Made by a program: the position numbers and the translations under genes. From Escherichia phage AV123, in sequence record OR352953.1: a DNA stretch of 64,000 bases; one strand, 5' to 3'. How positions within the stretch are numbered: the stretch's first letter is position 1; every line of letters begins with the position of its first letter. The notes under the pieces were generated by a model that was not told the DNA's origin, did not search any database, and saw only the letters and a program-made list of their open reading frames with translations. Below, in pieces: positions 18,420 to 50,852 of this stretch.

Positions 18420-18524
18420 ATGATGACGTTTATTGTTGGTGTTGTTGTTGGTTATTTTGGTCACAAGTACCAGGATGTTATCATCGCTAAAGTTGACGAA
18501 GTAATCGAAAAATTTAAACACTAA
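18420..18524 (+). CDS. small membrane peptide (34 aa)
   Basis: ATG 18420 with AAGGAGAAG RBS; hydrophobic N-terminus. Confidence 0.4.
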   Translation: MMTFIVGVVVGYFGHKYQDVIIAKVDEVIEKFKH

Positions 18525-18575
18525 TTTTTTAAAAGGCTGTACTGCTGTGCAGCCTATCTTTCAAAGGAGAGTAAA

Positions 18576-18749: not shown

Positions 18750-18758
18750 GGAGGCAAT

Positions 18759-19046: not shown

Positions 19047-19054
19047 GGAAAACT

Positions 19055-19378
19055 ATGCAAAAAATAAACACTGGTTCTCGTCATAAACAGAAGCAAACAA
19101 AAGCAAGGGTATCTTATGTTGACAACTCTTGTTATAATTTCAAAAATGTTAAAGAAGTTATCATTGATGAAAAAGAAGGTTTGATTCACATTTCATCTGA
19201 ACGTTTGAAAGGTAGTGTTACTCTTCGTGAGAATGTATCTATACCTATGAAAGTTGTGGCTACACTCTGTGTTGATAAACCAGATGTTGTTAACTACTAT
19301 GTGTTCCGTGATAGTTGTATTTCATTACATAATAAGATTTTTAAATCTTCGCACGTTAAAACAAAACACATTGTATAA
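19055..19378 (+). CDS. hypothetical protein (107 aa)
   Basis: track ORF. Confidence 0.55.
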   Translation: MQKINTGSRHKQKQTKARVSYVDNSCYNFKNVKEVIIDEKEGLIHISSERLKGSVTLRENVSIPMKVVATLCVDKPDVVNYYVFRDSCISLHNKIFKSSHVKTKHIV

Positions 19379-19384
19379 CACATA

Positions 19385-19408
19385 AACCCGCTTCGGCGGG
19401 TTTTCTTG
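19385..19408 (+). terminator. rho-independent terminator (CCCGC-TTCG-GCGGG + TTTT)
   Basis: tetraloop hairpin and T-tract after stop 19378. Confidence 0.65.
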
Positions 19409-19452
19409 TATGTGTGTTTTTATTTGTCTTAGCATAAACAATAGGAGGTATT

Positions 19453-19674
19453 ATGTCTGTAGTTGTAGAAGGTAGTATTGGTTTCTTAGTAGATAACCCT
19501 CACCCTTTCGTGGTTAAGGTTCATATTCAAGAAAAGGTAAGCAACAATACGTGGTTGTGCTTGTTAGATAGTAAGATACACTCTTATACAGAGGTTTATC
19601 TTCATACTTGGCAAATTGGTACGATAACAGCAGAGGATGAATTGATAATTGAATTATATGAACGAGATCTATAG
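19453..19674 (+). CDS. hypothetical protein (73 aa)
   Basis: track ORF; TAGGAGG RBS. Confidence 0.55.
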   Translation: MSVVVEGSIGFLVDNPHPFVVKVHIQEKVSNNTWLCLLDSKIHSYTEVYLHTWQIGTITAEDELIIELYERDL

Positions 19675-19754
19675 ATGACTTTACTAGAGAGTATCGTAGT
19701 GTTAATCATCTTTATCATTGTTGTCATAGGATATTTTACAGAGGACTAAAATAA

Positions 19755-19788
19755 AGCCCCTAGAATCACTTCTAGGGGCTTTTGTTTG
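19755..19788. terminator. bidirectional terminator hairpin (AGCCCCTAGAA-TCAC-TTCTAGGGGCT + TTTGTTTG) at convergence of + and - gene blocks
   Basis: 11-bp perfect stem with T-run; lies between last + gene and first - gene. Confidence 0.6.
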
Positions 19789-19849
19789 CATTAGATAGGG
19801 AAACGTATTACTAAAATAAAAAGTGCGTTAGAATGCGTTACAGGAGGTT

Positions 19850-20107
19850 TTAGGAATGCATAAAATCTTCTTCAGGGCAGGTTGAGAGATAAGAGATGCA
19901 CGTTGGGACAACAACAACATTATCTTTAAGGTTTGCAACCAAGCCTTTTGTAATTCCAGCCACTGCTCCGTTAATATCTGCTTGACGGATACCAAAACCT
20001 TGTTGTGCGGATAGATAACAAAATCCCTCACCTTTCTGTTGATTATTATTGAAGTAATAAACGTAGTGCATCATAAAATGGTCTTTAACGATTTGTTCTG
20101 TGGTCAT
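19850..20107 (-). CDS. hypothetical protein (85 aa)
   Basis: track ORF; AGGAG RBS on minus strand. Confidence 0.55.
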   Translation of the reverse strand: MTTEQIVKDHFMMHYVYYFNNNQQKGEGFCYLSAQQGFGIRQADINGAVAGITKGLVANLKDNVVVVPTCISYLSTCPEEDFMHS

Positions 20108-32092: not shown

Positions 32093-32359
32093 TTACTCCG
32101 CAATCTGAGCCATGAATTCACGTAGTTCAGAAAAACCTCCTACGTGGGTTAGCTGTTCACCATCTTCCACAAAAATCTGAGGAAATGTGCGTGGTAGAAC
32201 ACCTGTTTTCTCTACAACCAGATTCTGAATCTGATCTAAAGAATAGTCTTCATCTAAGGTAAGATATTTAAAATCCTGTTCACGCTGTTCTAGTAGAATC
32301 TTAGCGTTAGTGCAGAAAGGACAATTTGGTTTACCGTAGATAATAAAATTCATTTTCAC
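32093..32359 (-). CDS. glutaredoxin-like protein (NrdC/NrdH-type redoxin)
   Basis: CPFC active-site motif near N-terminus; 88 aa; adjacent to nucleotide-metabolism genes. Confidence 0.7.
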   Translation of the reverse strand: MKMNFIIYGKPNCPFCTNAKILLEQREQDFKYLTLDEDYSLDQIQNLVVEKTGVLPRTFPQIFVEDGEQLTHVGGFSELREFMAQIAE

Positions 32360-33186
32360 TCCTTGTTTAAAAGTATAGTTAAAGTTCTTACAATACCGCT
32401 ATCAACACTTCGCGGATTTAAAGTAGGATCTGTTTTTAAATAAGATGTTGCTGGTCTGACTGCTTTGGAATTATAGGTTGAAGCAGATACAGGATTAACT
32501 GTAACAGACAAATCTACAACAAGAAATATCTTTCGTGCAAAATCATACCAAGAAATATAATCTGCACCTGCATAGTGTACAATTTTACTATTTACACCAT
32601 CTTTTACAAGTTTAAAAATTGTTTCTGCAAGATCAGGTGCATAAGTAGGACATGATAAATGATCACATACTACATTAAATTCTTTTTGACCACCGTTGTA
32701 GCGTTCCAACATAGTTTTCAAAAAGTTATGTCCAAATTCACTATAAACAGAAGCTGTTCTGATAATAAGTGCTGTAGGACAAACTGTTTGTACTAAAGTT
32801 TCACCTAATTGTTTACTGTAACCGTAGGTGTTCAAGGGGTTTGTTTTACTATCTTCTGTGCCAGCAACATGCCCATCAAAAACATAGTCTGTTGAAATAT
32901 GTACAAACTGTATCAGTAAATCATTACATGCTTTGGCAATGTTTGTTGCACCGTATGCATTAACATTTATACAGGTGTTAACATCTTCTTCAGCTTTATC
33001 TACTGCCGTGTAAGCCGCACAATTCACAACAACATCAGGCACATGCTGTACAAGACTATTCATAACATCTTTAAAGTTGGTAATGTCTACATCACTTGCT
33101 TCAATCAAAATAACATCTTCGGGCGCAACTTTTGCCAAAGACTGTCCTAATTGACCTTTTGAACCAAAGATTAAAAATTTTGTCAA
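32356..33186 (-). CDS. rmlD: dTDP-4-dehydrorhamnose reductase
   Basis: N-terminal FGSKGQLG Rossmann motif; operon context with rmlC/A/B. Confidence 0.75.
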   Translation of the reverse strand: MTKFLIFGSKGQLGQSLAKVAPEDVILIEASDVDITNFKDVMNSLVQHVPDVVVNCAAYTAVDKAEEDVNTCINVNAYGATNIAKACNDLLIQFVHISTDYVFDGHVAGTEDSKTNPLNTYGYSKQLGETLVQTVCPTALIIRTASVYSEFGHNFLKTMLERYNGGQKEFNVVCDHLSCPTYAPDLAETIFKLVKDGVNSKIVHYAGADYISWYDFARKIFLVVDLSVTVNPVSASTYNSKAVRPATSYLKTDPTLNPRSVDSGIVRTLTILLNKE

Positions 33187-33737
33187 AATATGATCTCCTT
33201 TAGTGTTTTGGCTTGCTGATCTTTTTGTGACAAGATAGGTTTAAAATTAATATCATTAAAGATTAAATCAAAACCCCAATCAATATTGATATCTGGATCA
33301 TTCCACGCAAGACTACACTCTGAAGTCGGATCGTAATACTCTGTACATTTATATTCAAAATCAGCAATGTCACTAATCACAACAAAGCCATGAGCGAAAC
33401 CAGGAGGAATCCAAAATTGTGTTTTATTCTTTTCAGATAAGAGAACACCTACCCATTCTCCAAATGTTGGACTACCAACCCTAATATCTACAGCAACATC
33501 ATAAACTTCACCACGAACACAACGTACTAACTTCCCTTGTGGGTTTTTCTTTTGAAAATGAAGCCCACGTAGAACTCCTCGAATAGAACGTGAATGGTTG
33601 TCTTGGACAAAGTTTTGTTTACCTATGTATTGATCATATAAAGCCTGATTAAAACTTTCTAAGAAAAAACCACGTTCATCTCCGTAAACGTCAGGTTGAA
33701 TGATCAACAAATCTTCGATTTTTGTTGCTTGAATCAT
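33183..33737 (-). CDS. rmlC: dTDP-4-dehydrorhamnose 3,5-epimerase
   Basis: 184-aa cupin-size protein between rmlD and rmlA; RGLHFQ-like motif. Confidence 0.7.
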   Translation of the reverse strand: MIQATKIEDLLIIQPDVYGDERGFFLESFNQALYDQYIGKQNFVQDNHSRSIRGVLRGLHFQKKNPQGKLVRCVRGEVYDVAVDIRVGSPTFGEWVGVLLSEKNKTQFWIPPGFAHGFVVISDIADFEYKCTEYYDPTSECSLAWNDPDINIDWGFDLIFNDINFKPILSQKDQQAKTLKEIIF

Positions 33738-33749: not shown

Positions 33750-34619
33750 TTATTTTAATTTAAGTAAATACTTACCGTAGTCTGTTTTACTTAAAACCTC
33801 TCCAGAACTTTTTACAGAGTCTAAAGTAATCCATTCATTTTTAAAAGCAATCTCTTCCAGGCATGCAACCTTCATACCTTGTTGCTTTTCTATTGCATGA
33901 ACAAATTGAGATGCTTCCATAAGACTTTCATGTGTTCCTGTATCCAGCCAAGTGAAACCTCTTCCTAGTTTACAGACACGTAAAGCCTTTTCTTTCCAGT
34001 ACATATCATTTATATCTGTAATCTCTAACTCCCCTCTAGCAGAAGGTTTAACGCTTTTAGCTTTCTGTATAACAGAATTATCGTAAAAGTACAAGCCTGT
34101 GATTGCATAGTTGCTTTTTGGTGCTTTTGGTTTTTCTTCAATACTCACCACTGTACCTTCAGAATCAAACTCAACAACACCAAATCTTTCAGGATCATTT
34201 ACGTGATACCCAAAAATATTAGCTCCACCATTCTTCTCAATATGTTCTTTAGCAGAATCTAAAATGCTACCAAAACTCTGACCAAAGAATAAATTATCAC
34301 CTAGCACAAGTGCTACAGAATCTTCACCAATAAAGTTCTCACCAATAATAAACGCTTCTGCTAAACCTCTTGGGCTATCCTGTATTGCATACTGTAGGGA
34401 AATACCAAAAGAGGAACCATCACCTAGAAGATTTACAAAATTAATTTGATCTTCTGGTGTTGTAATTATTAGTATTTCCCTAATTCCAGAAAGCATTAGG
34501 ACAGAGAGTGGATAATAAATCATAGGCTTATCATAAATTGGTAATAGTTGTTTACTAACCCCTTTAGTAACTGGGTAAAGTCTTGTTCCACTACCACCTG
34601 CTAAGATAATACCTTTCAT
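33750..34619 (-). CDS. rmlA: glucose-1-phosphate thymidylyltransferase
   Basis: [19 protein letters not shown]-terminal signature. Confidence 0.85.
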
Positions 34620-34627: not shown

Positions 34628-35617
34628 TTAAACTTTATTTTCCCACCACTCTTTGTTATCTACATACCAATCAATGGTTGAATAAAGTTTTTCTTCAAAT
34701 GTGCCTTTAGCTTTCCACCCTAATTCCTTTTCAATCTTATAAGGATTCACTTCATATCTTAGATCATGTCCAGGTCTATCTGTAACCATCTCAATTAGGC
34801 TACAAGCATCTGTTTCAGATGGATACACCGCATCCATATAATCACAAATCATATAGATTACATCAATATTAGTTCTAGGGTTTCTGCTCCCAATATTATA
34901 TGTTTCTCCAGATTTGCCTTTAGTTACTACTAGGTGTAATGCTTCTGCGTGATCGTCAACGTATAACCAGTCTCTTACTTGAAGACCATTGCCATAAACA
35001 GGGATTGGTTTATTCATCAAGATATTTGTTATCGTTTTAGGTATTAGTTTTTCTGGATGATGATATGCTCCAAAATTATTTGAACAATTTGTTATAACTG
35101 TCGGAATACCATAAGTACGATGCCACGCTCTTACCAAATGATCGCTTGCTGCCTTAGATGCAGCATATGGACTACTTGGCTTATAAGGATTCTGTTCTGT
35201 AAACGGATAATCCCCTTCTTCCATATCACCATATACTTCATCTGTTGAAATATGATGGAACATTTTAAGATTTGATTTATCTCCCATTAAACGAACAGCT
35301 TCTAGGAGATTAAATGTCCCAACAATATTTGAATTTATAAAAACACTCGGTGATGCTATTGAATTATCTACGTGACTTTCTGCTGCAAGATGCATTATAT
35401 AATCTGGATTAACATCTGCCACAATCTTAGCAGTTAACTGCGCATTTGTCAAGTCAACACGACAAAACTTTACATTGGGTGTTTCTGATAAATTTCTAGG
35501 GTCTGAAGCGTAACCCCATTTATCTATAACGTAAATATCATTTTTAGTATTTTTAGCCAGGAAACGAACTACCGCACTTCCAATAAAGCCTAAACCACCT
35601 GTTACTAAGTATTTCAT
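34628..35617 (-). CDS. rmlB: dTDP-glucose 4,6-dehydratase
   Basis: [20 protein letters not shown]-binding motif; SDR-type layout. Confidence 0.85.
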
Positions 35618-36496: not shown

Positions 36497-36683
36497 ACTT
36501 GGCTACACCATTAACTATGATATGACCGCAAGACATAACTCCTAGCCAATGATCACCATTCTTTTTTAAACGTTTGCCGTAAACATCACAGAAACCATTC
36601 TGTAATTCGGAAGCCTCGTAAGAGGCTCCCTTTTCGAAAACGTCTTTGAAGTCAGAAATTAATCCAACACAAAGTAGTTTCAT
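36465..36683 (-). CDS. hypothetical protein (72 aa)
   Basis: track ORF. Confidence 0.45.
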   Translation of the reverse strand: MKLLCVGLISDFKDVFEKGASYEASELQNGFCDVYGKRLKKNGDHWLGVMSCGHIIVNGVAKFEIIKGEKDD

Positions 36684-37768
36684 TAAAAGTCTAACTCCTC
36701 GTCATCACTTACATCTTTATTTGCTGAATTCAGTTTGTAAGCTGTAATTTGGATCTCCTGTGCTGCTGCTTGAATTTGATCTGGGTTTAACCAAACATCC
36801 ATCCAAGGCAGTGGACTTTTCTTCGGTGCACGGAATTTGTGTTTCATTTTCAGTCTGCGATAGATAGGTGCAGCATTGAAGTAAACCCAAAGTTTGAACA
36901 ACTCTGCGTTACCACCAACGATAACCCTTCCTTCACTAAACAGATAGTCACACCAATCTTCCTCTTGTCCAACTACCGTGTCAAGAATTTCTGTCAGAAC
37001 GTCGATATTATCTTCGTATACTTTTCTCCAAACAGGATCTTTCAGCAGTGCATCAATAATAGCATAATCCATTTTAACGTGCAATAGTTCATCCAACATA
37101 ATTTTTTGAATGAGTTTAGCTGCACCTACAAACAATTGCTGCTCTGCTAAGGCAAATGTTGCAGCAAAAGAGGAGATGAACTGAATACCTTCCAGACCGA
37201 TAAGTGCAATCATTCCTTTCAGGATCAGTAGACGAAGGTTATCATCCTTCTCAATCAGACCTAGAGCATATTTATGTCCTGCCTCTGCCAGATCACTCAT
37301 TATCTCTTCAACTATACCCATCCTCTGGAAGATTCTTTCATTCTCCATGATCTGATCGATAACTTCATTTGGATTAGGGATACACTGACGAATAATTTCA
37401 GAATATGTTAAAGCGTGTAAAACTTCCATTTCTGATTGCTTCATCATCATTGCACATGCTTCGTTGTTGCTTAAAAATGGTGCAAACAAAGTGATGATTG
37501 ATTTAGCAAGTGAATCATTTTCCCATTGGAAAGATAGGTTTTTGATCATAACATCATAGTTGCTTTTAGAACAAGCTACGAAATCTTTTCGTGTCTGATC
37601 TAAGTTTACTTCGTTTTCATCCCAATCTTGCTGTTTTTGTAGTTTGTACAGACGATGCATTTCTGGGTATGTTACGTTAATAGAATCAAAAATACCTAAC
37701 TGTTCGCCCAAAAATACAGGGTAGAAACCTTCTTTGTAAGTGTCGTTGTATAAATTAATTGCTGCCAT
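36683..37768 (-). CDS. nrdB: ribonucleotide reductase class Ia beta subunit
   Basis: 361-aa ORF immediately downstream of nrdA in the same orientation; call rests on size and gene order, no motif checked by eye; no intron interruption. Confidence 0.8.
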   Translation of the reverse strand: MAAINLYNDTYKEGFYPVFLGEQLGIFDSINVTYPEMHRLYKLQKQQDWDENEVNLDQTRKDFVACSKSNYDVMIKNLSFQWENDSLAKSIITLFAPFLSNNEACAMMMKQSEMEVLHALTYSEIIRQCIPNPNEVIDQIMENERIFQRMGIVEEIMSDLAEAGHKYALGLIEKDDNLRLLILKGMIALIGLEGIQFISSFAATFALAEQQLFVGAAKLIQKIMLDELLHVKMDYAIIDALLKDPVWRKVYEDNIDVLTEILDTVVGQEEDWCDYLFSEGRVIVGGNAELFKLWVYFNAAPIYRRLKMKHKFRAPKKSPLPWMDVWLNPDQIQAAAQEIQITAYKLNSANKDVSDDEELDF

Positions 37769-38090
37769 TTAAATCCTCCACAATATCACACATTGCTTTT
37801 ATTGTATCAATGTGTTCTCTCTCCATACCATTCTCTATGTAAGCCTTCTCTAATGCGTTCCATACACTCTTTGTGAGTAGTACAGTAACCTCTCCCTCAT
37901 ATCTTGCCCTGGTTAAAGCATACCAGGTAGCTTCGGGATCATTGGAAGCCCATATTTCAACACTGGAAAATTGAAAACCTGCAATATGATGACAACACCA
38001 ATCGAATGTAAAATCTTTACTATCTACCAGTGTATAATTGCCCCAACGCCTTTGTGGTGTTGCCCCAGGTAATACAACTAATGTAGGCAT
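37755..38090 (-). CDS. hypothetical protein between nrdA and nrdB (111 aa)
   Basis: internal ATG of track ORF with AAGGAGG RBS. Confidence 0.5.
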   Translation of the reverse strand: MPTLVVLPGATPQRRWGNYTLVDSKDFTFDWCCHHIAGFQFSSVEIWASNDPEATWYALTRARYEGEVTVLLTKSVWNALEKAYIENGMEREHIDTIKAMCDIVEDLNGSN

Positions 38091-38131
38091 ATTCCTCCTT
38101 AAGAAATGGGGGACAAAGCCCCCTAGCTTCA

Positions 38132-40393
38132 TTACATCTTACAAGCCTCACAACCGGATTCTTCATCCTCTTGAGCGAGTGAGGTTGCTGATTTTGTTCG
38201 ACTATTTAGATAGTACAAAGATTTACCACCAAGTTTTGCAAACTGAAGGATATATTGCATTTCTGATTTAATGGATAAACGACCACCTTCCATCTTAGAA
38301 TAGTCAATCCACTTGTCACATGATGCACCTTGATCTAAGAATTTAGTCAACAGTCCATATGCTTCAGCCATATCTTTATCTGGCGTATCCCAAGCCGATT
38401 GGTAAATATCTTTTAGTTTATCGTAATCTGGCACAATAAACAAGACATTACCTTTTTGGCTTTGTTTATAAACTATAGTATCACGTACAGGATACACAGA
38501 GTTAGTCGTATTACTTACAAGACTACTGGACTCATTCGGAGCAATAGCTGCTAATACACTATTTCGGATACCACCTTGTGCAATTATATCTTGTCGTAAA
38601 CCTTCCCAATCCATTTTAAGTTTAAAATTGCCAATATCGTCTACAGCTTTAGCGTAGGTATCAATAGGCAACCATCCTTCAGGCCATTTGGTTTTATGCA
38701 TCCATTCTGCATTACCTTTCTCTTTTGCCAAACGAAGAGAAGCTCTTGCTAACCAGTAATAATGTCTTTCTGCTAATTCGTGAATTAGTTTTTTGCCGTA
38801 AGGATCTGAATAAGTAACAAAATTACTTGCCAGATAATGTGCCAGGTTTGTAATACCTACACCGATAGACCTACGTGCTTTAGCAGTGATTTCGTTATGT
38901 TTAAACGGATACTGCATTGTTTCAATAACATTATCAATAGTTAGAACGGTATAATATGCAACATCTTCATATTCTTCTGGTGTAACACGACCAGCTACAA
39001 TAGAAGACAGGAAACATAATGCCAATTCTTGATCTTCTGTATTCTCACCTGTGAAAAGATCAGTCATACTGTGAAATGCTTTCGTAGGCAAGAAAATTTC
39101 TTGGCACAAGTTTGACTGATAAATAACATCCTTAAACGGAGTATGCTTATTAGCATTATCCGCAAAGAACATATAAATACGTCCTGTCTCTGCTCTTTGT
39201 GTAATAATTTCTGCCAGAAGATCTCGTGCTTTTACAAACTTCTTCTTAATTCGTTTGCGACTAACTTTTTCATATACTTCTTCAAACTCTTCCTCGCTTT
39301 TATAAAGCGCCTCATAGAGTTCTGGTGCTTCGTCATAACTAACTAGCATCCAATCTTTACCTTTTGCTGCACGGCGCAGGAAAGCATTGTTTACTACGAT
39401 AGAGTAATCAAGTTTATCTACTCGTTTTTCACTAACAGTAGTTGGGTTTTTCAAACGTACCAGATCTTCAAAATCAGGTTCTAATATTGTAAACGTTACT
39501 GTTGCACTTCCACCACGACTTGCTTGTTTTGATGCTCCAACACTTGTCTCCATCCATTTCAGATATGGTAAAAGACCACCGTGAACAATACGGTTGTTCT
39601 TAACACCTTGTCCTGTAGCACGGGTTTGGAGGTTAACACCAATACCTGCATTATTCAATGTATATTCATGAGCAAGATAGTTAGCAATTGCTAAAGATTC
39701 TGCTGTATCATCTGCTCTAAACAGACAACAAGAAGCACTACCTTTAATCTTAGTACGCAACGTTGTTAAATAAGGTGATGGTAAATTAATCTTAAGATCA
39801 CTTACGTAGGTATATAGACGTTTAATGTCTTCTACTCTGCGATCTTTTGGTTGGATTTCCATTACCTTCATTGCTACACCAATGAATAAAAATTGTGGTG
39901 ATTCAAAAACCACATCATTGATCGCATCTTTCACAAGATACTTATCAACCATCTGGCGCAGTACGGAATAACCATAAGTTAGGTTTTTATCATGATTGAT
40001 AATTTTACCAATCTCAATAATTTCTTCTTCTGTATAATTCATTTTCCCCCAATAGCCTTTACTTACAGACATATTGTAGAAATCCAGGAGGGAGGGGATA
40101 TTGTGATATCCCCCATGAGCCTGTTTATAGATCATACCAAGAAGTAACCGACCTGCCATATCACTATATGCCTGATCTTTCTTATCAATACATGCTGCTA
40201 TCATAGCTTTATGTAAATCACGAGTAGGCACACCGTCGTAACAACGTTTAACAGCTTCGAGTTCGATTTCAGACCAATTTAATTTACCAGCAGCAAACTC
40301 TGACCATTTACGAAGTTTTTCTGGATTAAATTCTTCTTTCTTGCCGTTTGTTTTTGTTACATAACGGATAGATTTGCTTAGATACTGAGTCAC
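38132..40393 (-). CDS. nrdA: ribonucleotide reductase class Ia alpha subunit (GTG start)
   Basis: 753-aa ORF upstream of nrdB, size typical of class Ia alpha subunit; call rests on size and gene order, no motif checked by eye. Confidence 0.85.
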   Translation of the reverse strand: MTQYLSKSIRYVTKTNGKKEEFNPEKLRKWSEFAAGKLNWSEIELEAVKRCYDGVPTRDLHKAMIAACIDKKDQAYSDMAGRLLLGMIYKQAHGGYHNIPSLLDFYNMSVSKGYWGKMNYTEEEIIEIGKIINHDKNLTYGYSVLRQMVDKYLVKDAINDVVFESPQFLFIGVAMKVMEIQPKDRRVEDIKRLYTYVSDLKINLPSPYLTTLRTKIKGSASCCLFRADDTAESLAIANYLAHEYTLNNAGIGVNLQTRATGQGVKNNRIVHGGLLPYLKWMETSVGASKQASRGGSATVTFTILEPDFEDLVRLKNPTTVSEKRVDKLDYSIVVNNAFLRRAAKGKDWMLVSYDEAPELYEALYKSEEEFEEVYEKVSRKRIKKKFVKARDLLAEIITQRAETGRIYMFFADNANKHTPFKDVIYQSNLCQEIFLPTKAFHSMTDLFTGENTEDQELALCFLSSIVAGRVTPEEYEDVAYYTVLTIDNVIETMQYPFKHNEITAKARRSIGVGITNLAHYLASNFVTYSDPYGKKLIHELAERHYYWLARASLRLAKEKGNAEWMHKTKWPEGWLPIDTYAKAVDDIGNFKLKMDWEGLRQDIIAQGGIRNSVLAAIAPNESSSLVSNTTNSVYPVRDTIVYKQSQKGNVLFIVPDYDKLKDIYQSAWDTPDKDMAEAYGLLTKFLDQGASCDKWIDYSKMEGGRLSIKSEMQYILQFAKLGGKSLYYLNSRTKSATSLAQEDEESGCEACKM

Positions 40394-41173: not shown

Positions 41174-42145
41174 TCACCATTTTGTATGGTTAGTCAAAAG
41201 TTGACGATGTTGAATCCAACCACAGAAGTTTCCACTCCACAAACGATGTTTACGATCCATATGTGTAATACCTTCTTCCCAAGAAGTAGGGAACGGAGGA
41301 ATATTAATACCACCTTTCTGTTGTTTTAATCCTGACAAATCCATTTCTTTCATTGGTGTTGCCTGGTGTTCAAACGGAGATGCATGTACCTTCTGTCCAG
41401 ACAGCAAACGAGAATAGATATCCAATGCTTTATCTTTAGTATCATTCAATTTACGATAACTTACCTGAGCGCAACAAGAAGCTGAGATAGCTTTTGCTTC
41501 ATCTTCTGTCAACATTTTCTCGTTGGAGAAGGTTTCACCCAAGAAATAACGGATCATACCAGTTTCTGGATCTCGATCACGATTAACGTAAGGTGTATGC
41601 CATTCCCCTGGGAAAAGAAGATATGGTTCAGAAGATTCATACAATTTTTTAATTTCTTTAGCAAGAGCCTCAATAGTAGGATCTGCATCAGCATCTACGC
41701 GCAACCACAAGAAGTTTTCTAGCTCTGTAGTGGTTACTACAGTCTTCATACGCTGGAATGGTTCTAGTAGGCGGTTTGCAACCTGTTTATGATAACCAGC
41801 AAGGGCAAACTCTTCTGCAAAACGTGCAGCACTTAGCGCAGCCAAGTCCCACCATTCTTTTGCAGTGTAACCTGCATCAATCAGGGCATCGTGATCTGTG
41901 CCTTTATCTTGCATACCTGGTTGGTTAGCACCAAAACGATAAGGACGTGCTGGAGATTGCCGTACCATTTCAATTAGAGTTTTAACAGGGATAGCTCGAC
42001 TTGATGCGGCATTACGAGAAAACAAACGATGCGTCATCAATTCAGAGTGAATGATTCGAGGATATTCAAGTTCAAAGGTAACAATATCCTTACCTTCAGA
42101 TGTTTGAGAGTGTGCAATAATTTTTGCTGAAATAGAATTTGTCAT
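41174..42145 (-). CDS. thyX: flavin-dependent thymidylate synthase
   Basis: THRLFSRNAASSRA matches ThyX RHRxxxxxxxS signature region. Confidence 0.65.
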   Translation of the reverse strand: MTNSISAKIIAHSQTSEGKDIVTFELEYPRIIHSELMTHRLFSRNAASSRAIPVKTLIEMVRQSPARPYRFGANQPGMQDKGTDHDALIDAGYTAKEWWDLAALSAARFAEEFALAGYHKQVANRLLEPFQRMKTVVTTTELENFLWLRVDADADPTIEALAKEIKKLYESSEPYLLFPGEWHTPYVNRDRDPETGMIRYFLGETFSNEKMLTEDEAKAISASCCAQVSYRKLNDTKDKALDIYSRLLSGQKVHASPFEHQATPMKEMDLSGLKQQKGGINIPPFPTSWEEGITHMDRKHRLWSGNFCGWIQHRQLLTNHTKW

Positions 42146-42154
42146 TATTTCTCC

Positions 42155-42745
42155 TTAAGGTAGTAAAATACTTTCAATTTCTTCCCACTGATTATCTAAA
42201 CCAGTGATAATTACATTAGGAAGTTTCTTTAACTCTTCCAAGTATGGATCTTCGTAAATAGTGTTGAAATATATTTTCAACGTTTCATCTGGAAATAGGA
42301 CAAGATTTTCAGCCCTATCGTCAATAGTTACGTCGCAAGGTAATAAGTATTTTTCTTTTGTTGCGAAAAAGCCATTACCAGATGTTCTACTAAAGTCCAC
42401 TTTATCTAAAGATCGTGTTACGTGTCTATATTTAGAACTAAGGTGTCCACCCTTAGTGTGGCTTGCTATAGATATATTAGCTCCATTTGCAATTATACGA
42501 TGAACAACATCTGTACTATTAGGTACTACTCCCATAGTATCATATAGATGTTGGTTATCCCAAAAAGAGTAAGGATCTACACCAAATTGCTTTTTAAAAT
42601 CAGGAAAATATTTCGTAATATCATAATGCACAGTCTTTTGTGTCTTATCAAACTTGATATTAGATCTACTTACCGCATTTAACCAACTCAACCATTCTAC
42701 ATCGGCAGGGGCTATTACTAAATCCCAATCACATACTAGACGCAT
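42155..42745 (-). CDS. HAD-superfamily 5'(3')-deoxyribonucleotidase-like protein, tentative
   Basis: internal ATG with CAGGAG RBS; N-terminal DxD (CDWDLV) and C-terminal TIDDR motifs. Confidence 0.35.
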   Translation of the reverse strand: MRLVCDWDLVIAPADVEWLSWLNAVSRSNIKFDKTQKTVHYDITKYFPDFKKQFGVDPYSFWDNQHLYDTMGVVPNSTDVVHRIIANGANISIASHTKGGHLSSKYRHVTRSLDKVDFSRTSGNGFFATKEKYLLPCDVTIDDRAENLVLFPDETLKIYFNTIYEDPYLEELKKLPNVIITGLDNQWEEIESILLP

Positions 42746-43292
42746 TATTTCTCCTGTTATAACATTTTCTACACATTGTTTCGTAAATGTCTTCTCCTCC
42801 AATAACAATCTGTTCTTTAGAGTCGATAAGTCTAGCATTGAAAATAGCTTTTCTTCCACATTTACAAATGCTTTTCAATTCTGTAATTGAATCTGCTATG
42901 GCTAATAACCGTTCAGAACCTTCAAACAATTCTGTAGCAAAATCTGTTTTAAGCCCATAACAGAATACAGGAATATCGTAATTATCTACCACATCTCCAA
43001 GAATGTCAACCATATCTTTAGTTAGGAATTGTGATTCGTCCACAAATACTGCATCTACTGGATTTTCTTTAAGTTGTGTATAAATTTCCAGCATATCTTC
43101 TTTTGTTTTAACTGGTTTTGCTTCCTCTTTAATACCTATCCTAGAAGCAATAGCACAACCAGATCTGGTATCTAAAGCTGAAGTTAAAAGAAGAACTTTC
43201 ATATTTCTTTCTTTATAGTTCCAAGCTGTTTGTAGCAGATGTGTGCTTTTACCACTGTTCATCGGACTATATCGGAAATAAAGTTTAGCCAT
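42729..43292 (-). CDS. tdk: thymidine kinase
   Basis: SPMNSGKST P-loop and C-terminal CxxC zinc motif. Confidence 0.85.
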   Translation of the reverse strand: MAKLYFRYSPMNSGKSTHLLQTAWNYKERNMKVLLLTSALDTRSGCAIASRIGIKEEAKPVKTKEDMLEIYTQLKENPVDAVFVDESQFLTKDMVDILGDVVDNYDIPVFCYGLKTDFATELFEGSERLLAIADSITELKSICKCGRKAIFNARLIDSKEQIVIGGEDIYETMCRKCYNRRNNASSM

Positions 43293-43337
43293 ATTTTCTC
43301 CTCTAACGCTCCCATTTGTGGGAGCGATAATACTTTA

Positions 43338-43913
43338 TTATTTCTCTTCGTCAAGAAGAATTTTTACTATTTGTTTTCTTCGCTTACTTACTGTACTTTC
43401 TGGTGAAATTCCGCGCTTCGTTAGCCAATTTTTATCCTTTTTAGACTGGCATAAAGCTATCGCTTCCTTCTCCGCTTTTGCTTCCCTGAATGTCATATCG
43501 TGCTTGTCAGCATAAGCCAGGATAGCGTTACACTGCTTACAAACTACACGCAGGTCGTCTTCTGTTACGTACAATAAGCGTAAAACAAAACTTGGAATAT
43601 CTTCATAACAGGTTAATGTACCTGCTGCATTAATATGGTCTACTTGAAAGTCTTTCATACCTCCTGTATGTCCACACAATTCACATTTACAATTCCAAAC
43701 CTGTTTCGGTTTGCCTGTTTTCTTATCTAAGACTATATTTCCATCTTTATCCAACCTATCCGCTTTAAATCGTACAGATTGGATCTTTTTTATCTTATTC
43801 GGGTGTCTCACCCATGCTTTCCTTAAGCAACCCCTTAAATATGTATAAAAGGCTGCTTGAGTTTTCCAAGGTGTTCCATCTCCCCAAATAACTTTAGGTT
43901 CTTTATTTTCCAA
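43338..43913 (-). CDS. HNH-family endonuclease (possible free-standing homing endonuclease)
   Basis: CELCGH ... DHI ... CKQCN spacing typical of HNH nuclease. Confidence 0.5.
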   Translation of the reverse strand: MENKEPKVIWGDGTPWKTQAAFYTYLRGCLRKAWVRHPNKIKKIQSVRFKADRLDKDGNIVLDKKTGKPKQVWNCKCELCGHTGGMKDFQVDHINAAGTLTCYEDIPSFVLRLLYVTEDDLRVVCKQCNAILAYADKHDMTFREAKAEKEAIALCQSKKDKNWLTKRGISPESTVSKRRKQIVKILLDEEK

Positions 43914-44097
43914 TAGTGCTCACCTTTTTAGCTACATAATCTCCTGGTGGAATGTTATATTTAAAGAAAAGCATACGGTCTAAACCAGCCTTACACATGT
44001 TTTCTGGGATTGTGATTGTATATAAGAGTTTATCTCCACGTTTATTGTATATTTTATATACTTCACCCTCTCCGTATTGTTTACCGTGAGAAGCCAT
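43903..44097 (-). CDS. hypothetical protein (64 aa)
   Basis: track ORF. Confidence 0.4.
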   Translation of the reverse strand: MASHGKQYGEGEVYKIYNKRGDKLLYTITIPENMCKAGLDRMLFFKYNIPPGDYVAKKVSTIGK

Positions 44098-44482
44098 CTA
44101 CGCTCTCCTTCAATGTTTCAATAGCATCTGCTGCTTCAATATACTTACCTTTGTACATTGCTTTTAAAGCCTTACGAACAAGATCATCGTCTGTGTATAA
44201 ATCAATTAGCTGATTAGCTAACTCAATTTTTACAGGATTTTTTAAGTTAGGGTAGGCTTCATACAACATATTGTAATACTTATCACTTAATTCTTTTTCA
44301 ATATGAATAACGTGAATCGCTTTGTTTAGGTTGATCACACGATCACCTTTGTTTCGACAAGCATACTTAGCTAACTTAGTGAAACAAGGAGTTGCACCAA
44401 TTAGATATGCAAGTTCCAAAGGTTGCATACGCATACGTTTGTAGTGATCACCATCAATTTGAATATCCAGTGCTGTAGTCAT
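44081..44482 (-). CDS. hypothetical protein (133 aa)
   Basis: track ORF; GGAGG RBS. Confidence 0.55.
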   Translation of the reverse strand: MTTALDIQIDGDHYKRMRMQPLELAYLIGATPCFTKLAKYACRNKGDRVINLNKAIHVIHIEKELSDKYYNMLYEAYPNLKNPVKIELANQLIDLYTDDDLVRKALKAMYKGKYIEAADAIETLKESVDGFSR

Positions 44483-44497: not shown

Positions 44498-44520
44498 AAA
44501 GGGGCTTTCGCCCCTTTTTT
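44498..44520 (-). terminator. intergenic GC hairpin AAAGGGGCTTTCGCCCCTTTTTT (terminator-like)
   Basis: third copy of the same hairpin; T-runs on both sides. Confidence 0.55.
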
Positions 44521-46895: not shown

Positions 46896-47780
46896 TTATT
46901 TTTGAATAGTTGACTTGATAAGGTCTTGCATAATACCACGGATTTCATTAAAGCACAGAAGGACAGATGCTTCAAAAGATCCTTCTTCGTCGTTAAAGTA
47001 TTTAGGGAATTTAATACCACTCAACTTAAATTCTTTATCAACAATAAAGTTAACGAAACCGTCATATTCCAGGCCAATGGCAACAACGTGCTTACCATCT
47101 TCCATAAGTTCTACTGCACGAGATTCGTAAAGGGATTCTTTACTCCATACAACCACACCTTCAGAATCTTCAAGTTTAATATAATTACCAAGGGTCAGTC
47201 GTTCAGCCTCATGTTCTTCTAAGATGGTATCGAAACCTTTAATAATGGCTTCTTCGTGTACACTAAACGGCAGAACTGGGAAAGTACCCAACACCTCACG
47301 AAGAAACACAGCAATATCTTCACTAATTTTCTTAGTACCATTAAGAACGTAGGTAATACTGTTTTCAGTGTCTACAACAACATAGTTATAGAAATCATCT
47401 GCCTCTGTTTCTGGGAGCAGAGAAAACACGATATCAGCCTCAATTGCTTTTTTACTTTCTTTGTCCAAGAAGAATTCTTTAGTAGGGTTTGCAGCAATAA
47501 ACTCTTGTTCCATCTCTTGAAGTTTTTCATTAAGAATGCGTTTAACTTTTTTCTTGTTAACTTTCTTAACAGATTGCCCTACTTTAATAACCTCTAAACC
47601 AGAGAACACTTTTACATAGGAACCATCATCTTCAAAACGAACAAGACCAATGGTATGTGCTTGTTGACCCTGTGCCACAACAAAATCCAGCGGTTTGTCT
47701 GTTACTGTGTTCAGTGCGGAAATAGACAGACCATCACCAGAAATCAGGGTTACGCAAGATTTGAAATTTTTAGCAAACAT
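46896..47780 (-). CDS. rdgC: RdgC-like recombination-associated protein
   Basis: MFAKNFK start and LREVLGTFPVLPFS align with E. coli RdgC (MLWFKNL ... LRKSLGSLPVVPLS); GAGGAG RBS. Confidence 0.55.
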   Translation of the reverse strand: MFAKNFKSCVTLISGDGLSISALNTVTDKPLDFVVAQGQQAHTIGLVRFEDDGSYVKVFSGLEVIKVGQSVKKVNKKKVKRILNEKLQEMEQEFIAANPTKEFFLDKESKKAIEADIVFSLLPETEADDFYNYVVVDTENSITYVLNGTKKISEDIAVFLREVLGTFPVLPFSVHEEAIIKGFDTILEEHEAERLTLGNYIKLEDSEGVVVWSKESLYESRAVELMEDGKHVVAIGLEYDGFVNFIVDKEFKLSGIKFPKYFNDEEGSFEASVLLCFNEIRGIMQDLIKSTIQK

Positions 47781-47790
47781 AGTTTTCTCC

Positions 47791-48069
47791 TCAAATAACA
47801 ACTACAAAATATTTTACACCATCATATTCGACAATATGATCAGGATATTTAAATCCTTTATAAGATTTACCAAACAGACTAACAGCCTCATTAGCTTTGT
47901 TTTGCGGATTACTCAGCCACTGTTCTTCTGTGTAAAACTTAAACTCTGTTCTCTTACCTTCTTTTTCTAAACCAACAATTTCCTGTGTGATATCTTCAAT
48001 ACCTGCATTCTTCAAGGATTTGATTACCTGACGCAAACCGTGTTTAAAGATATCTTCTGCTGTTAACAT
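47791..48069 (-). CDS. hypothetical protein (92 aa)
   Basis: track ORF. Confidence 0.5.
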   Translation of the reverse strand: MLTAEDIFKHGLRQVIKSLKNAGIEDITQEIVGLEKEGKRTEFKFYTEEQWLSNPQNKANEAVSLFGKSYKGFKYPDHIVEYDGVKYFVVVI

Positions 48070-48082
48070 AATACCTCCAATA

Positions 48083-48098
48083 AGCCCCCGAAGGGGCT
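48083..48098 (-). terminator. intergenic GC hairpin AGCCCC-CGAA-GGGGCT
   Basis: hairpin between two minus-strand genes. Confidence 0.4.
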
Positions 48099-48105
48099 TT
48101 ATTTC

Positions 48106-48828
48106 TTAAGCAATGATTGCTGCGATATTAGGTTTAACAAAGGTAGATGGTTTCATAATTTTACCTTTATCATCAAAGAATACGTACACCTTTTGAACTT
48201 CGTTATATACAGCATGTACCCCAGTATAAGAACCTTCTGCACGATCTTTGCTTCGCATCTCGATAGCATCGCACTCTTTTTCAAGAGCTTCAATAATATC
48301 CTTAGTTTCCCAAATAGCCAGGAGTTGCTTCTTGGTAGGATACTTGGACTCATTGCTATTCAACACTTCACGCATAACCTTCTTCTCGTTATAAACAGAA
48401 CGCACCAAAGTATCTCGTGCCATACGGGTAAGTGTAAGAGACATTAAGGCAAATTGCAAGTCATTTTCTACCATTTTATCAAATTCAATGATAACATCGT
48501 AAATGTTTTCTGCCAGAACATCCCCTGTCGGCATTTCCAGAGCTTTATCAACACCTTCTTTACCAAAGAACATAAATGCCAGGTAGGAGGCTACCACAAA
48601 AATATCTGCTGCTGCATCAAGTAATTCAACGTGATCATTTTCCTGTGCTGCTGCTTGGAACTCTTTAAGTTCTTCTCGTACAAAAGAAAGTTGAGCTTCA
48701 AACATCTCTTGAGTAAATTCTGGAGTTACTCCACCACGTGCCTTAGCATTCCAAGCAACAATTTGATCGGCAGCTTTGATAAAGAAGCTATTGTCCACTT
48801 TTACTTGTTTGAAAAAATTCTCGATCAT
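48106..48828 (-). CDS. MazG-like nucleotide pyrophosphohydrolase, tentative
   Basis: REELKEF ... DHVELLDAAADIFVV resembles the MazG acidic EExxE...D metal-binding motif. Confidence 0.35.
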   Translation of the reverse strand: MIENFFKQVKVDNSFFIKAADQIVAWNAKARGGVTPEFTQEMFEAQLSFVREELKEFQAAAQENDHVELLDAAADIFVVASYLAFMFFGKEGVDKALEMPTGDVLAENIYDVIIEFDKMVENDLQFALMSLTLTRMARDTLVRSVYNEKKVMREVLNSNESKYPTKKQLLAIWETKDIIEALEKECDAIEMRSKDRAEGSYTGVHAVYNEVQKVYVFFDDKGKIMKPSTFVKPNIAAIIA

Positions 48829-48837
48829 TGTTTCTCC

Positions 48838-49017
48838 TTATTTAAAATATTGTTCTAACAAAACACTAATGCGAACTACCGATTCGCCCATATACGCCCC
48901 AGCACAGAGGAAAACAACAAATCTACAAAAATTGCAGTACCATTTGTCCACTGGAAACGAGGCTAACATTATAATTGCAATAGCAATTAACATCATAAGA
49001 ACTGTTACTAATACCAT
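48838..49017 (-). CDS. small membrane protein (59 aa)
   Basis: internal ATG with AAGAGG RBS; hydrophobic N-terminus. Confidence 0.4.
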   Translation of the reverse strand: MVLVTVLMMLIAIAIIMLASFPVDKWYCNFCRFVVFLCAGAYMGESVVRISVLLEQYFK

Positions 49018-49025
49018 ATTACCTC

Positions 49026-50141
49026 TTACTCTGCTGGTTCCCAAGTACCTGGAATCATCTTACGTACACGTACCCCAACAGGCTTAGTAGGAATACCTTC
49101 GTCTGAAAATTCTTCGTACTCAATTTCAACAAATTGACCAATAAGTGTCAAAGCATTTTCTTCTTTACGATAGTTAATGGTTTCATCTGAATCCTTACGC
49201 ATCAGGAATTCGACTACTTTACCATTTTCCATCTCTCCTGTCAATACCCCGTCACCATTTTTATCACGCTTTGCACTTACCACTTTAACTTCAAGCGTCT
49301 GCCGTGGTTTACGTTTAATAACATCATAAGAACGTTTATCAAACTCGTAAACACCTTGTGCGTTACGATACACCACACCTTCCGCTTTCTCACGTAGAGC
49401 TTTTGCATAGAAAGCATCAAACTGCTCTTGGTTTTCAATGTACTCTGTATGTACTACACAAATGAGTTCATCTAAACCCTTATCTTCAACAACTTCTTTT
49501 AGAGCAGCCAAAACTTGAACCCTCTTCTCAAATGGTACAGATGGCACGGGAACATCATATACATAGTATTTAAGAAGCGGAGTGTTAGCATTATGCTTTT
49601 TCCACGCACTATTAATTTGTTGAAGGCTAAGGATACCCAAACCAGCAAAAACTTCACCGTCAAGAGGATGACCAACCACTTCTTTAATGAAGGTTGGAAT
49701 TTCTTCCCAGTGAGGTGGGAGTTTATATACCTCTCCAGCTTTAGATAAACATTCACCTTGCATGTTAATCATTGAACGTAGACCATTCAATTTATATTGT
49801 GCATAACCTGGGAACAAAACACGATCAGCATAATCTTTATAATCCTGACATTTCATGGGTGTAGAAGGAACATGGTTTTCAGCTTCCTCTTTTGTTTTAT
49901 AATACCCATTCTTAAGTTGCTTTGTCCATTTGGCAAGAGCTTCTATTTCAGCTTGTTCTTCTGCTGTTGTTTCATTTGAGCGACCAATATTTTTAGGTTC
50001 TGCCGTATAAGATTTGCTAGTGATCTTTCCACCTAATTGACCATGAGCAACAGTTACAACACTACCTTCGGTATAGACTGACCACTGTCTAATTTTACCT
50101 GTAGAAGTTTTACCATATAATGTAGGATTAGTTTGTTTCAT
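49026..50141 (-). CDS. ATP-dependent DNA ligase (covalent nucleotidyltransferase)
   Basis: motif I KLNGLR (KxNG variant), motif IV EGVVYR, motif V KRK; internal ATG with GGAGG RBS. Confidence 0.6.
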   Translation of the reverse strand: MKQTNPTLYGKTSTGKIRQWSVYTEGSVVTVAHGQLGGKITSKSYTAEPKNIGRSNETTAEEQAEIEALAKWTKQLKNGYYKTKEEAENHVPSTPMKCQDYKDYADRVLFPGYAQYKLNGLRSMINMQGECLSKAGEVYKLPPHWEEIPTFIKEVVGHPLDGEVFAGLGILSLQQINSAWKKHNANTPLLKYYVYDVPVPSVPFEKRVQVLAALKEVVEDKGLDELICVVHTEYIENQEQFDAFYAKALREKAEGVVYRNAQGVYEFDKRSYDVIKRKPRQTLEVKVVSAKRDKNGDGVLTGEMENGKVVEFLMRKDSDETINYRKEENALTLIGQFVEIEYEEFSDEGIPTKPVGVRVRKMIPGTWEPAE

Positions 50142-50331
50142 CTTTAACCTCCAGTTGCGAAAGAACCCATTTAGCCATTTCAATTTCACCGTGTAGTCTG
50201 CCTAGTTCATAGGCATCATCAATATTACCACCAGTGTAATCATCCACCATAAAGTAAGGATCTTCACTACTGTTAGGCGCGTTTGCAATTCTCGTTAGTT
50301 CTTCAATAAATGTCATAGTTAACCTTACCAA
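50128..50331 (-). CDS. hypothetical protein (67 aa)
   Basis: track ORF. Confidence 0.45.
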   Translation of the reverse strand: MVRLTMTFIEELTRIANAPNSSEDPYFMVDDYTGGNIDDAYELGRLHGEIEMAKWVLSQLEVKDETN

Positions 50332-50549
50332 TTATACACAAGAGTTTGAATTTCTTCCATCAAATCTTCAAGATCTGTATCAACATATTCAGAAGATGTT
50401 GCCATAAAGTATGTAATCATTGTGAACCCTTCCGAAGAAAGGGCATCAAGGATATCATTAAACATATCTTCCATTTCAGTATTCTCACCAAATGAAAATA
50501 ACATTTGTTGATCTTCGCTTACACCTTTAACATAGATAGCTGTGCTCAT
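50325..50549 (-). CDS. hypothetical acidic protein (74 aa)
   Basis: track ORF. Confidence 0.45.
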   Translation of the reverse strand: MSTAIYVKGVSEDQQMLFSFGENTEMEDMFNDILDALSSEGFTMITYFMATSSEYVDTDLEDLMEEIQTLVYNW

Positions 50550-50552
50550 ATA

Positions 50553-50852
50553 TTAATCCTTAAGACGTTCATTTAAATCTTCACATTCCAGTGTTAACTC
50601 TGAAACTTGTTCATTCAAACAAGAAACTTCTTCATTTAGATCTGAAATAATGTTTTCTAATGAATCTACTTGATCATCATATGAACGTTTTGTTTCTTCA
50701 AGGTCTTCCATAAGACTATCAATCAAATGCAGCAAAGATAAGATATAGCCGTCTCCTGTTGCGTTCCTCCACTCACTTCCGTAGCGATAAATAATAATTT
50801 CACCATCATCGACTACTGTAAAATACTTACCTTTACCAGAATAAATTTCCAT
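50553..50852 (-). CDS. hypothetical protein with coiled-coil-like C-terminus (99 aa)
   Basis: track ORF. Confidence 0.5.
   Translation of the reverse strand: MEIYSGKGKYFTVVDDGEIIIYRYGSEWRNATGDGYILSLLHLIDSLMEDLEETKRSYDDQVDSLENIISDLNEEVSCLNEQVSELTLECEDLNERLKD

Follow-up and report, generated by a model that had tools for sequence, protein, structure and literature searches.

Positions 41,174 to 43,292 of a 64,000-nucleotide (nt) stretch of DNA from Escherichia phage AV123 (sequence record OR352953.1; the whole stretch is referred to as the window) hold exactly three open reading frames (ORFs), all on the minus strand: a thymidine kinase gene (tk), a gene for a HAD-like protein and a gene for a protein related to the flavin-dependent thymidylate synthase ThyX (thyX). 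The first 17 nt of the HAD gene are shared with the end of tk, its stop codon lies 9 nt before the ATG of thyX, and equally strong Shine-Dalgarno sites precede the ATGs of all three genes. The window shares 99.3-99.6% nucleotide identity with Escherichia phages inny, Paula, phi92, alia, VEcB and PaulScherrer, and its source is a phi92-like myovirus of the genus Justusliebigvirus, subfamily Stephanstirmvirinae. The initial annotation had taken phage T4 and its thymidylate synthase gene td as frame of reference, which does not apply to a phi92-like phage whose relatives are already annotated. In the GenBank records of these relatives the gene for the 323-amino acid (aa) protein mostly appears as '(putative) thymidylate synthase' and tk (187 aa) as 'thymidine kinase', and the gene between them is entered as 'hypothetical protein'. 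The thyX and tk content is thus part of public annotation and ordinary.

The 323-aa protein, which is 100% identical to phi92 gp078 and encoded by a single uninterrupted, intein-free ORF, is a member of the ThyX family as judged by profile match, fold and conserved catalytic residues. Pfam Thy1 (PF02511) matched it with 37 bits (threshold 24.8; E 3.9e-9), the match covering only residues 22-170 and positions 59-186 of the 191 profile positions. The signature quoted in the initial annotation, THRLFSRNAASSRA, corresponds to residues 38-51. Both the presence of a ThyX-family gene and its lack of interruption, as claimed there, are borne out. An AlphaFold2 model calculated from a 118-sequence alignment reached a predicted local distance difference test score (pLDDT) of 95.8 and a predicted template modelling score of 0.92; a model based on a shallow 16-sequence alignment (pLDDT 62.9) was discarded. 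Foldseek searches with the model against the PDB and against viral models (BFVD) returned solely ThyX and thymidylate synthase entries, plus PolB. Sequential structure aligners superimposed ~146-160 residues, corresponding to ~70% of canonical ThyX (~215 residues) and half of the phage protein.

The C-terminal half of the phage protein (...QVSYR...DKALDIY..LLSG.KVHASPFEH) resembles the N-terminal region of Thermotoga maritima ThyX (TmThyX; ...RVSFD...RHLIEYLMKHGHETPFEH), whose sequence as used here was checked to be identical to PDB 1kq4. With a family alignment of 120 sequences in native order, hhalign matched residues 15-179 to TmThyX 55-204 (E 1.9e-5) and gave a second, out-of-order match of residues 215-273 to TmThyX 16-72 (E 1.3e-3); residues 181-260 alone matched TmThyX 8-59 with E 1.4e-4. 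When residues ~205-260 were put before residue 20 in artificial constructs, the score rose from 37 to 53.7 bits for Pfam Thy1 and from 35.8 to 53.9 bits for the NCBIfam thyX equivalog TIGR02170, where it still stayed under the cut-off of 87.9. Reordering thus gained ~17-18 bits on both models, and the matched stretch was extended from profile position 59 to position 13. Finally, the reordered family profile aligned with TmThyX 8-204 in one continuous alignment (probability 96%, E 3e-9). Taken together, the out-of-order matches, the gains upon reordering and the single reordered alignment indicate an altered segment order: a module composed of a strand, two helices and a His-loop, which precedes the core in canonical ThyX, follows the core in the phage enzyme.

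The relocated module is followed by a family-specific tail of ~65 residues, in which N306 and Q312 are near-invariant and R314 (41204-41206) is invariant. Comparison of this tail with the protein's own N-terminus and with TmThyX by hhalign revealed no detectable similarity (E 0.31), and the same value does not support the idea that the tail motif 'GWIQHRQ' is a second, degenerate RHR motif from a duplicated copy. Since the tail has no counterpart in ThyX, we describe the architecture as a relocated module plus a new tail rather than as a proven circular permutation in the strict sense.

Homologues of ~640 aa were considered as tandem duplications that might explain a circular permutation, but BLAST and Pfam searches showed them to be single ThyX proteins interrupted by inteins. 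These metagenomic proteins of 520-680 aa (P0133, P0139, P0140, P0142, P0162, P0204, P0208, P0228, P0232, P0235, P0247-P0249, P0257 and P0261 of our homologue set) belong to the long form and are split by inteins 250-330 aa in length, which contain either Intein_splicing plus HNH domains or LAGLIDADG domains. The inteins sit at three places, inside ELMTH/R (the slash marking the point of insertion), next to R149 and at VH/ASPFEH, corresponding to residues ~34-48 (~42002-42045), ~150 (~41696) and ~255 (~41381) on thyX of the window. Inteins typically reside in catalytically essential motifs, and as they target such motifs, their placement hints that the relocated His-loop is functionally important. 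ThyX inteins have been discussed for mycobacteriophages (PMC5050341). In the PaulScherrer genome inteins are found in the DNA polymerase and UvrD helicase genes.

We then compared the active-site residues by aligning the reordered profile, representing 118 diverse homologues, to TmThyX. In the core, H79, S88, R90 and N169 of TmThyX correspond to H39, S48, R50 and N144, each kept in all 118 sequences, and the same holds for the nucleotide-binding arginines R147 and R174 (R125 and R149 in the phage protein). The relocated module contributes S229 and H254, equivalent to S30 and H53 and likewise present in 118 of 118 sequences, as well as S256 (T55; 116/118) and E259 (E58; 111/118). N85 is retained as N45 in 115 homologues, H178 is replaced by D or A throughout the clade, and M78, K120, H183, P185 and R314 are new invariant residues of the long-form clade. 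Altogether 14 alignment columns are invariant, nine of which map to positions equivalent to the ThyX active site. The listed residues of T. maritima ThyX bind deoxyuridine monophosphate (dUMP), flavin adenine dinucleotide (FAD) and folate, and the titles of PDB entries name H53, S88, R90, Y91 and R174 as residues mutated in ThyX studies. As to the RHR and serine residues that the initial annotation had named, the formal alignment recovers the serine and two of the three RHR residues, the first arginine being Thr38.

The long form is widespread. Among 8000 candidates scored, 7474 proteins are relatives of similar length (~320 aa); at 50% identity there are at least 4970 clusters with E<=1e-3, at least 1495 of them with E<=1e-30. 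In tblastn searches the long-form gene was found in 1034 phage genomes, where it is usually annotated as 'thymidylate synthase' or 'FAD-dependent thymidylate synthase'. Its carriers include phAPEC8, rV5-like and PVP-SE1-like phages, Vibrio phage ICP1, Pseudomonas phages of the Pakpunavirus/PAK_P type, N4-like and phiCbK-like phages as well as Campylobacter and Flavobacterium phages, and in many phage groups of therapeutic relevance the rearranged long form seems to be the prevailing type of ThyX. The literature searched, in which coverage of subscription journals was poor so that an earlier description is possible, contained no description of a rearranged long-form phage ThyX. We consider it close to an even chance, if slightly below it, that the phi92 enzyme stands for a very large, so far undescribed 'long-form' ThyX clade with a relocated N-terminal module that could differ from textbook ThyX. 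If this is true, active-site assembly, oligomeric state and sensitivity to reductants or inhibitors may differ as well.

Several observations weigh against assigning the activity of a ThyX-type thymidylate synthase to this protein. It fails the cut-off of the thyX equivalog model in its native order (35.8 bits), phmmer found no match for it among PDB sequences, and a native-order family profile of 16 sequences reached TmThyX at only E ~1. The first arginine of the motif (R78 in TmThyX) is Thr in 113 of the 118 homologues and Arg in only two, and at R40, the equivalent of R80, only 95 have Arg and the others K, G or N. Further changes extend over the whole clade: E86 is replaced by A or S, Y91 by A51 (118/118), N163 by T or S and R165 by T140 (115/118). 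In addition, the spatial equivalence of residues 209-260 to the canonical N-terminal module is a prediction from sequence profiles, and the literature searched holds no assay of any long-form member, so that synthesis of deoxythymidine monophosphate (dTMP) is a predicted activity. Because the first arginine is missing, the equivalog cut-off is failed and the segment order is rearranged, the phage protein is a divergent family member and not a standard ThyX.

The failed cut-off, the clade-wide substitutions at R78, E86, Y91, N163 and R165 and the new invariant residues M78, K120, H183 and R314 would also suit a flavin- and folate-dependent C5-transferase with another substrate or product, for instance a methylase acting on UMP, as PolB does, or on dCMP, or a hydroxymethylase, the last of which would feed a modified base into the phage DNA; the dTDP-sugar and glycosyltransferase genes of the phage point in the same direction. 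We regard such an enzyme as very unlikely. The arginines that bind uracil and phosphate (R90, R147 and R174) and Ser88 are invariant, and no other thymidylate synthase or dihydrofolate reductase (DHFR) is encoded, so that the phage would otherwise be left without a thymidylate synthase of its own. Moreover, more than 1000 phages from widely differing groups (including ICP1, N4-like, Pakpunavirus and phiCbK-like phages) carry the protein, and to our knowledge none of the phage groups carrying the long form has been reported to replace thymine. In the BASEL phenotyping, Vequintavirinae and phi92-like phages were reported as 'exceptionally susceptible' to restriction-modification systems even though they carry 'a putative dTDP glycosylation machinery', and the study notes that this gives no protection from restriction (PMC8594841). 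This sensitivity suggests unmodified DNA and speaks against replacement of thymine as well as against any other protective DNA modification or glycosylation. A role of ThyX in DNA base modification was accordingly ranked low, given the reported restriction sensitivity and the conserved arginines of the uracil site.

The very low similarity to canonical ThyX and the loss of the first signature arginine might alternatively mark a relic that has decayed or lost catalysis, such as a regulator that binds nucleotides, with dTMP being provided by the host, as E. coli encodes its own ThyA. The size of the clade (E below 1e-30 for at least 1495 of the 50%-identity clusters; 1034 phage genomes), the 14 invariant columns with nine at active-site-equivalent positions, the targeting of conserved motifs by inteins and the confidently predicted fold, however, speak for strong purifying selection on catalysis and make a relic highly improbable. 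Ordinary conversion of dUMP to dTMP is in our view the most likely activity of the phage ThyX, and a likely one.

When ThyA, FolA, Dut and T4 Cd were used as tblastn queries, neither the window nor the complete genome of PaulScherrer gave a match at E<=0.1, and the whole-genome annotation of PaulScherrer lists no other thymidylate synthase, DHFR, dCMP deaminase or dUTPase. As neither a ThyA nor a DHFR homologue was found, the long-form ThyX is probably the only dTMP synthase of the phage. Genomes with ThyX usually lack ThyA and DHFR, and the absence of DHFR fits ThyX chemistry since that reaction yields tetrahydrofolate.

The middle gene of the locus encodes a predicted NT5C/HAD-type phosphatase. 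The mechanically called ORF (42155-42859) begins at a GTG and would overlap tk by 131 nt. An AGGAG motif 5 nt upstream precedes the ATG at 42745, so we place the gene at 42155-42745; the start in the PaulScherrer annotation is identical. The database contains 25 homologues that are 43-97% identical, 24 of which were aligned with the protein of the window. The catalytic residues of the HAD motifs, D6, D8, S95, K130, K132, D142 and D143, are invariant across this family alignment, and 23 of 26 aligned sequences match Pfam NT5C (PF06941) at E<=0.01 (best E 8e-13), whereas just one matches any other HAD family (HAD_2, E 2.6e-4). Two further phages have it directly upstream of thyX, phAPEC8 with 63% identity and the rV5-like FFH2 with 33% identity (E 4e-27), and its pairing with thyX is conserved across three phage genera. 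In PHROG it belongs to family 420 ('unknown function'), and it is 'hypothetical' in every GenBank record examined. At the level of a family assignment we accept the product as an NT5C-type HAD phosphatase, probably a deoxyribonucleotidase. Thus, the gene can be assigned to the NT5C/HAD deoxyribonucleotidase family, which goes beyond existing annotation; of the 5'(3')-deoxyribonucleotidase proposed in the initial annotation the family stands, the assignment holding at family level only.

The protein of the window itself lies just under the gathering score of NT5C (23.4 versus 24.8 bits, E 6e-5), which counts against this assignment. So does the comparison of the family profile with solved structures, as the top four matches, all chains of human mitochondrial 5'(3')-deoxyribonucleotidase, are non-significant (E 0.56-0.61); a phmmer search of the protein against PDB sequences gave no match. 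The substrate specificity of HAD enzymes is notoriously hard to read from sequence, and together with the annotation of the gene as hypothetical or of 'unknown function' these values leave room for a phosphatase acting on a sugar phosphate (linked to rml or glycosylation), on a ribonucleotide or in the processing of 3'-phosphate ends. Such a substrate is unlikely in our view, in light of the NT5C matches of the close homologues. The 5'(3')-deoxyribonucleotidases are also the only HAD proteins among nine weak matches to solved structures (all E > 0.5), the rest being unrelated chance matches. In three genera the gene sits just ahead of thyX and nrdAB, and rV5-like and phAPEC8 phages keep it with no rml gene annotated within the ~5 kb flanks examined. 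We therefore retain a deoxyribonucleotidase as the probable identity.

The first gene of the locus is, by sequence, unambiguously assigned as a bona fide TK1-type thymidine kinase, in line with the thymidine kinase named in the initial annotation. It matches Pfam TK (PF00265) over its full length with 185 bits (threshold 20.6) and NCBIfam NF003300 with 238.9 bits (cut-off 195), and contains the P-loop SPMNSGKST (43242-43268), the motif DESQF and zinc-type cysteines of the pattern CKC...CRKC (CxC...CxxC; within 42750-42875). A GAGGAG Shine-Dalgarno site precedes its ATG. Whereas tk is present in phi92-like phages, it is missing from the same position in phAPEC8 and the rV5-like phage FFH2. As phAPEC8 has the HAD gene directly, without tk, the kinase gene seems to have been added to the HAD-thyX-nrd block specifically in the phi92-like lineage. 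At the position of the HNH endonuclease gene, phAPEC8 carries a gene for a 191-aa 'hypothetical protein', which is followed by the HAD gene.

From these assignments we propose that tk, the NT5C-like phosphatase gene and thyX form a compact pyrimidine-deoxynucleotide module that heads the nucleotide-metabolism block and is probably co-transcribed; the overlap between tk and the HAD gene, the short spacer before thyX and the strong Shine-Dalgarno sites suggest translational coupling. Long-form ThyX would methylate dUMP to dTMP with the help of FAD, NAD(P)H and methylene-tetrahydrofolate. As this reaction would release tetrahydrofolate, no DHFR would be needed. The thymidine kinase would salvage thymidine (and deoxyuridine) to the monophosphate, and together with the NT5C-like phosphatase it may run a substrate cycle between deoxynucleoside monophosphates and deoxynucleosides that tunes or re-routes pyrimidine pools. 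The combination of de novo and salvage routes to dTMP, as put forward in the initial annotation, is thus a reasonable inference from a ThyX-family gene and a TK1-type kinase. The explanation of the whole three-gene module, with ThyX as dTMP synthase, the kinase and the NT5C-like phosphatase, appears probable to us.

With respect to co-transcription, it has to be weighed that the number of promoter-like sites does not exceed that in shuffled sequence (32 versus 37.5±5.7), so that no transcription unit can be defined, and that neither promoter nor terminator evidence above chance delimits one. The module may further be joined by NrdAB and the RmlA pathway, which consumes deoxythymidine triphosphate (dTTP), to a unit for pyrimidine and dTTP supply. 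The rml operon invoked in the initial annotation is present and complete (rmlBACD, all four genes above their NCBIfam equivalog cut-offs), lying ~6 kb further along the same strand as thyX and encoding the dTTP-consuming dTDP-rhamnose pathway; extra dTTP demand from dTDP-sugar synthesis is a reasonable inference from it. More speculatively, the NT5C-like enzyme, host cytidine deaminase, the thymidine kinase and ThyX might turn surplus dCMP into dTMP, a route conceived because the phage is AT-rich (~37% G+C) and has no dCMP deaminase.

The features of the locus and of its surroundings are listed in the table. Read along the minus strand, the HNH endonuclease gene is followed by tk, the HAD gene, thyX, two small ORFs, nrdA, a small ORF and nrdB, and beyond nrdB by several small ORFs and then rmlB, rmlA, rmlC, rmlD and the glutaredoxin gene. 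The initial annotation had placed thyX downstream of nrdA, which is correct in plus-strand coordinates; in the direction of transcription thyX comes before nrdA, and the two small ORFs lie between them.

Table. Features of the tk-HAD-thyX locus and neighbouring genes of the window (Tm, T. maritima ThyX)
Feature	Position	Strand	Remarks
Long-form rearranged ThyX-family protein, putative flavin-dependent thymidylate synthase, 323 aa	41174-42145	minus	
ThyX motif region T38-H39-R40...S48-S49-R50-A51	41993-42034	minus	aligned to Tm R78-H79-R80...S88-G89-R90-Y91
Relocated module, residues 209-260: strand, two helices, HASPFEH loop	41366-41521	minus	equivalent to Tm 8-59
Family-specific C-terminal tail, residues 261-323	41174-41365	minus	no counterpart in canonical ThyX
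NT5C/HAD-type phosphatase, candidate 5'(3')-deoxyribonucleotidase, 196 aa	42155-42745	minus	
HAD motif I, DWDLV (D6, D8)	42716-42730	minus	
HAD motif II, S95	42455-42463	minus	
HAD motif III, K130/K132	42350-42358	minus	
HAD motif IV, D142-D143 within IDDR	42317-42322	minus	
tk, TK1-type thymidine kinase, 187 aa	42729-43292	minus	Pfam TK, NCBIfam NF003300, PHROG 592
Free-standing HNH endonuclease gene, directly upstream of tk	43338-43913	minus	PHROG 1985, E 9e-66; HNH in relatives' annotation
Two small conserved ORFs, 136 aa and 86 aa	40405-41076	minus	PHROGs 15711 and 15807 (unknown function)
nrdA	38132-40393	minus	TIGR02506 482.6 bits, cut-off 341; class Ia ribonucleotide reductase, transcribed after thyX
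Small ORF, 125 aa, bridging nrdA and nrdB	37755-38132	minus	PHROG 17458, unknown function
nrdB	36683-37768	minus	best match NF006576 160.9 bits, below cut-off 346; class Ia ribonucleotide reductase together with nrdA; PaulScherrer annotation
rmlB	34628-35617	minus	NCBIfam equivalog 443, cut-off 365
rmlA	33750-34619	minus	NCBIfam equivalog 472, cut-off 361
rmlC	33183-33737	minus	NCBIfam equivalog 260, cut-off 156
rmlD	32356-33186	minus	NCBIfam equivalog 254, cut-off 224
Glutaredoxin gene	32093-32359	minus	

The small ORFs on either side of nrdA gave no Pfam family match; they might encode accessory factors of the reductase or the synthase. In phAPEC8 and the rV5-like phage FFH2, two small ORFs also lie between thyX and nrdA, and the position between nrdA and nrdB is likewise taken up by small ORF sequence. 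In the PaulScherrer genome four glycosyltransferase or 'disaccharide synthase' genes (47580-50756) adjoin the primase/helicase gene, and the annotation of a relative shows a cluster of 14 tRNA genes downstream of the region.

The intergenic region between the HNH gene and tk contains a short hairpin on the minus strand (GCTCCCA-caaa-TGGGAGC, 43311-43333) just upstream of the ribosome-binding site of tk. It is overlapped by a sigma-70-like sequence, TTGACG-16-TATTAT (43354-43327), promoter-like matches in this region not being above chance. A perfect 8-bp GC-rich hairpin with flanking T-runs on both strands (AAAGGGGC-TTTC-GCCCCTTT, 44498-44517) is located between the gene for a DnaQ-like exonuclease and orf133; the scan of 11 kb showed no other strong terminator-like site. 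The product of orf133 (44081-44482) was considered as a DUF3310/T7 gp1.7-like kinase and rejected, as no Pfam or NCBIfam match was obtained even at E<=10. On the scale of the window, the GC skew changes sign at ~20 kb and ~56 kb, matching the switch of the coding strand: a block of early genes occupies the plus strand (~1-20000) and the replication and nucleotide-metabolism block the minus strand (20000-56000).

A ThyX gene and a tk gene are common in phages, and the finding in its initial form is routine; the general picture of phage deoxynucleoside triphosphate (dNTP) supply is unchanged, and there is no surprise about phage biology. Research on ThyX itself treats it as a target for antibacterial drugs and as a mechanistic curiosity, its flavin serving as methylene carrier. 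Studies of active-site assembly would gain a useful comparison from a natural ThyX variant in which the cofactor-binding module is relocated and the signature motif altered, and the long form could matter for enzyme evolution, for the ThyX mechanism and for the correct annotation of phage nucleotide metabolism, standard equivalog models rejecting it.

Canonical ThyX, as represented by the enzymes from T. maritima (TM0449, PDB 1kq4/1o26), Mycobacterium tuberculosis (2af6) and PBCV-1 (A674R, 2cfa/4fzb), has the core motif ...H-R-x-x-S-x-N-x-x-S-x-R in common with the phage protein, which also keeps the equivalents of H79, S88, R90, R147, N169, R174, S30, H53, T55 and E58. Canonical enzymes are homotetramers with bound FAD whose active sites are built from three subunits. 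They comprise ~220-250 aa, as compared to 323 aa in the phage protein, and carry in front of the core the module that would follow it at residues 209-260 in the latter. Restricted to the phage protein are the clade-specific tail with its invariant R314 and an insertion of ~30 aa (residues 64-95) that contains an invariant GMQ loop. Furthermore, the canonical RHR is THR in the phage protein, and Y91, N163 and R165 are replaced. PolB from Streptomyces cacaoi (PDB 4p5a), a C5-methylase for UMP and dUMP in polyoxin biosynthesis, has the canonical segment order, unlike the phage ThyX, and shares only 17-19% sequence identity with it. It is encoded in an antibiotic biosynthetic cluster, whereas the phage gene lies amid genes for dNTP supply (tk, nrdAB).

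The td (ThyA)/frd (DHFR)/cd module of phage T4 serves the same purpose, supply of dTMP for the phage, beside ribonucleotide reductase genes. Its synthase, however, belongs to an unrelated enzyme family; the phage of the window is not T4-like, and the window contains neither a ThyA, DHFR or dCMP deaminase homologue nor an intron. The thymidine kinase resembles E. coli Tdk and the phage T4 tk product (PF00265, NF003300) over its full length, with nothing notable that differs. The HAD protein shares with the mammalian deoxyribonucleotidases cdN and mdN (NT5C/NT5M; PDB 1mh9, 4l6a) the HAD motifs DxDxV, S/T, K and DD, the last within IDDR, as well as the small size of ~200 aa; it differs in the weakness of its match to them and in a clade-specific cap region (residues 12-90). 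In mammalian cells cdN and mdN are paired with thymidine kinases, with which they act in a substrate cycle, and in the phage the HAD gene overlaps tk.

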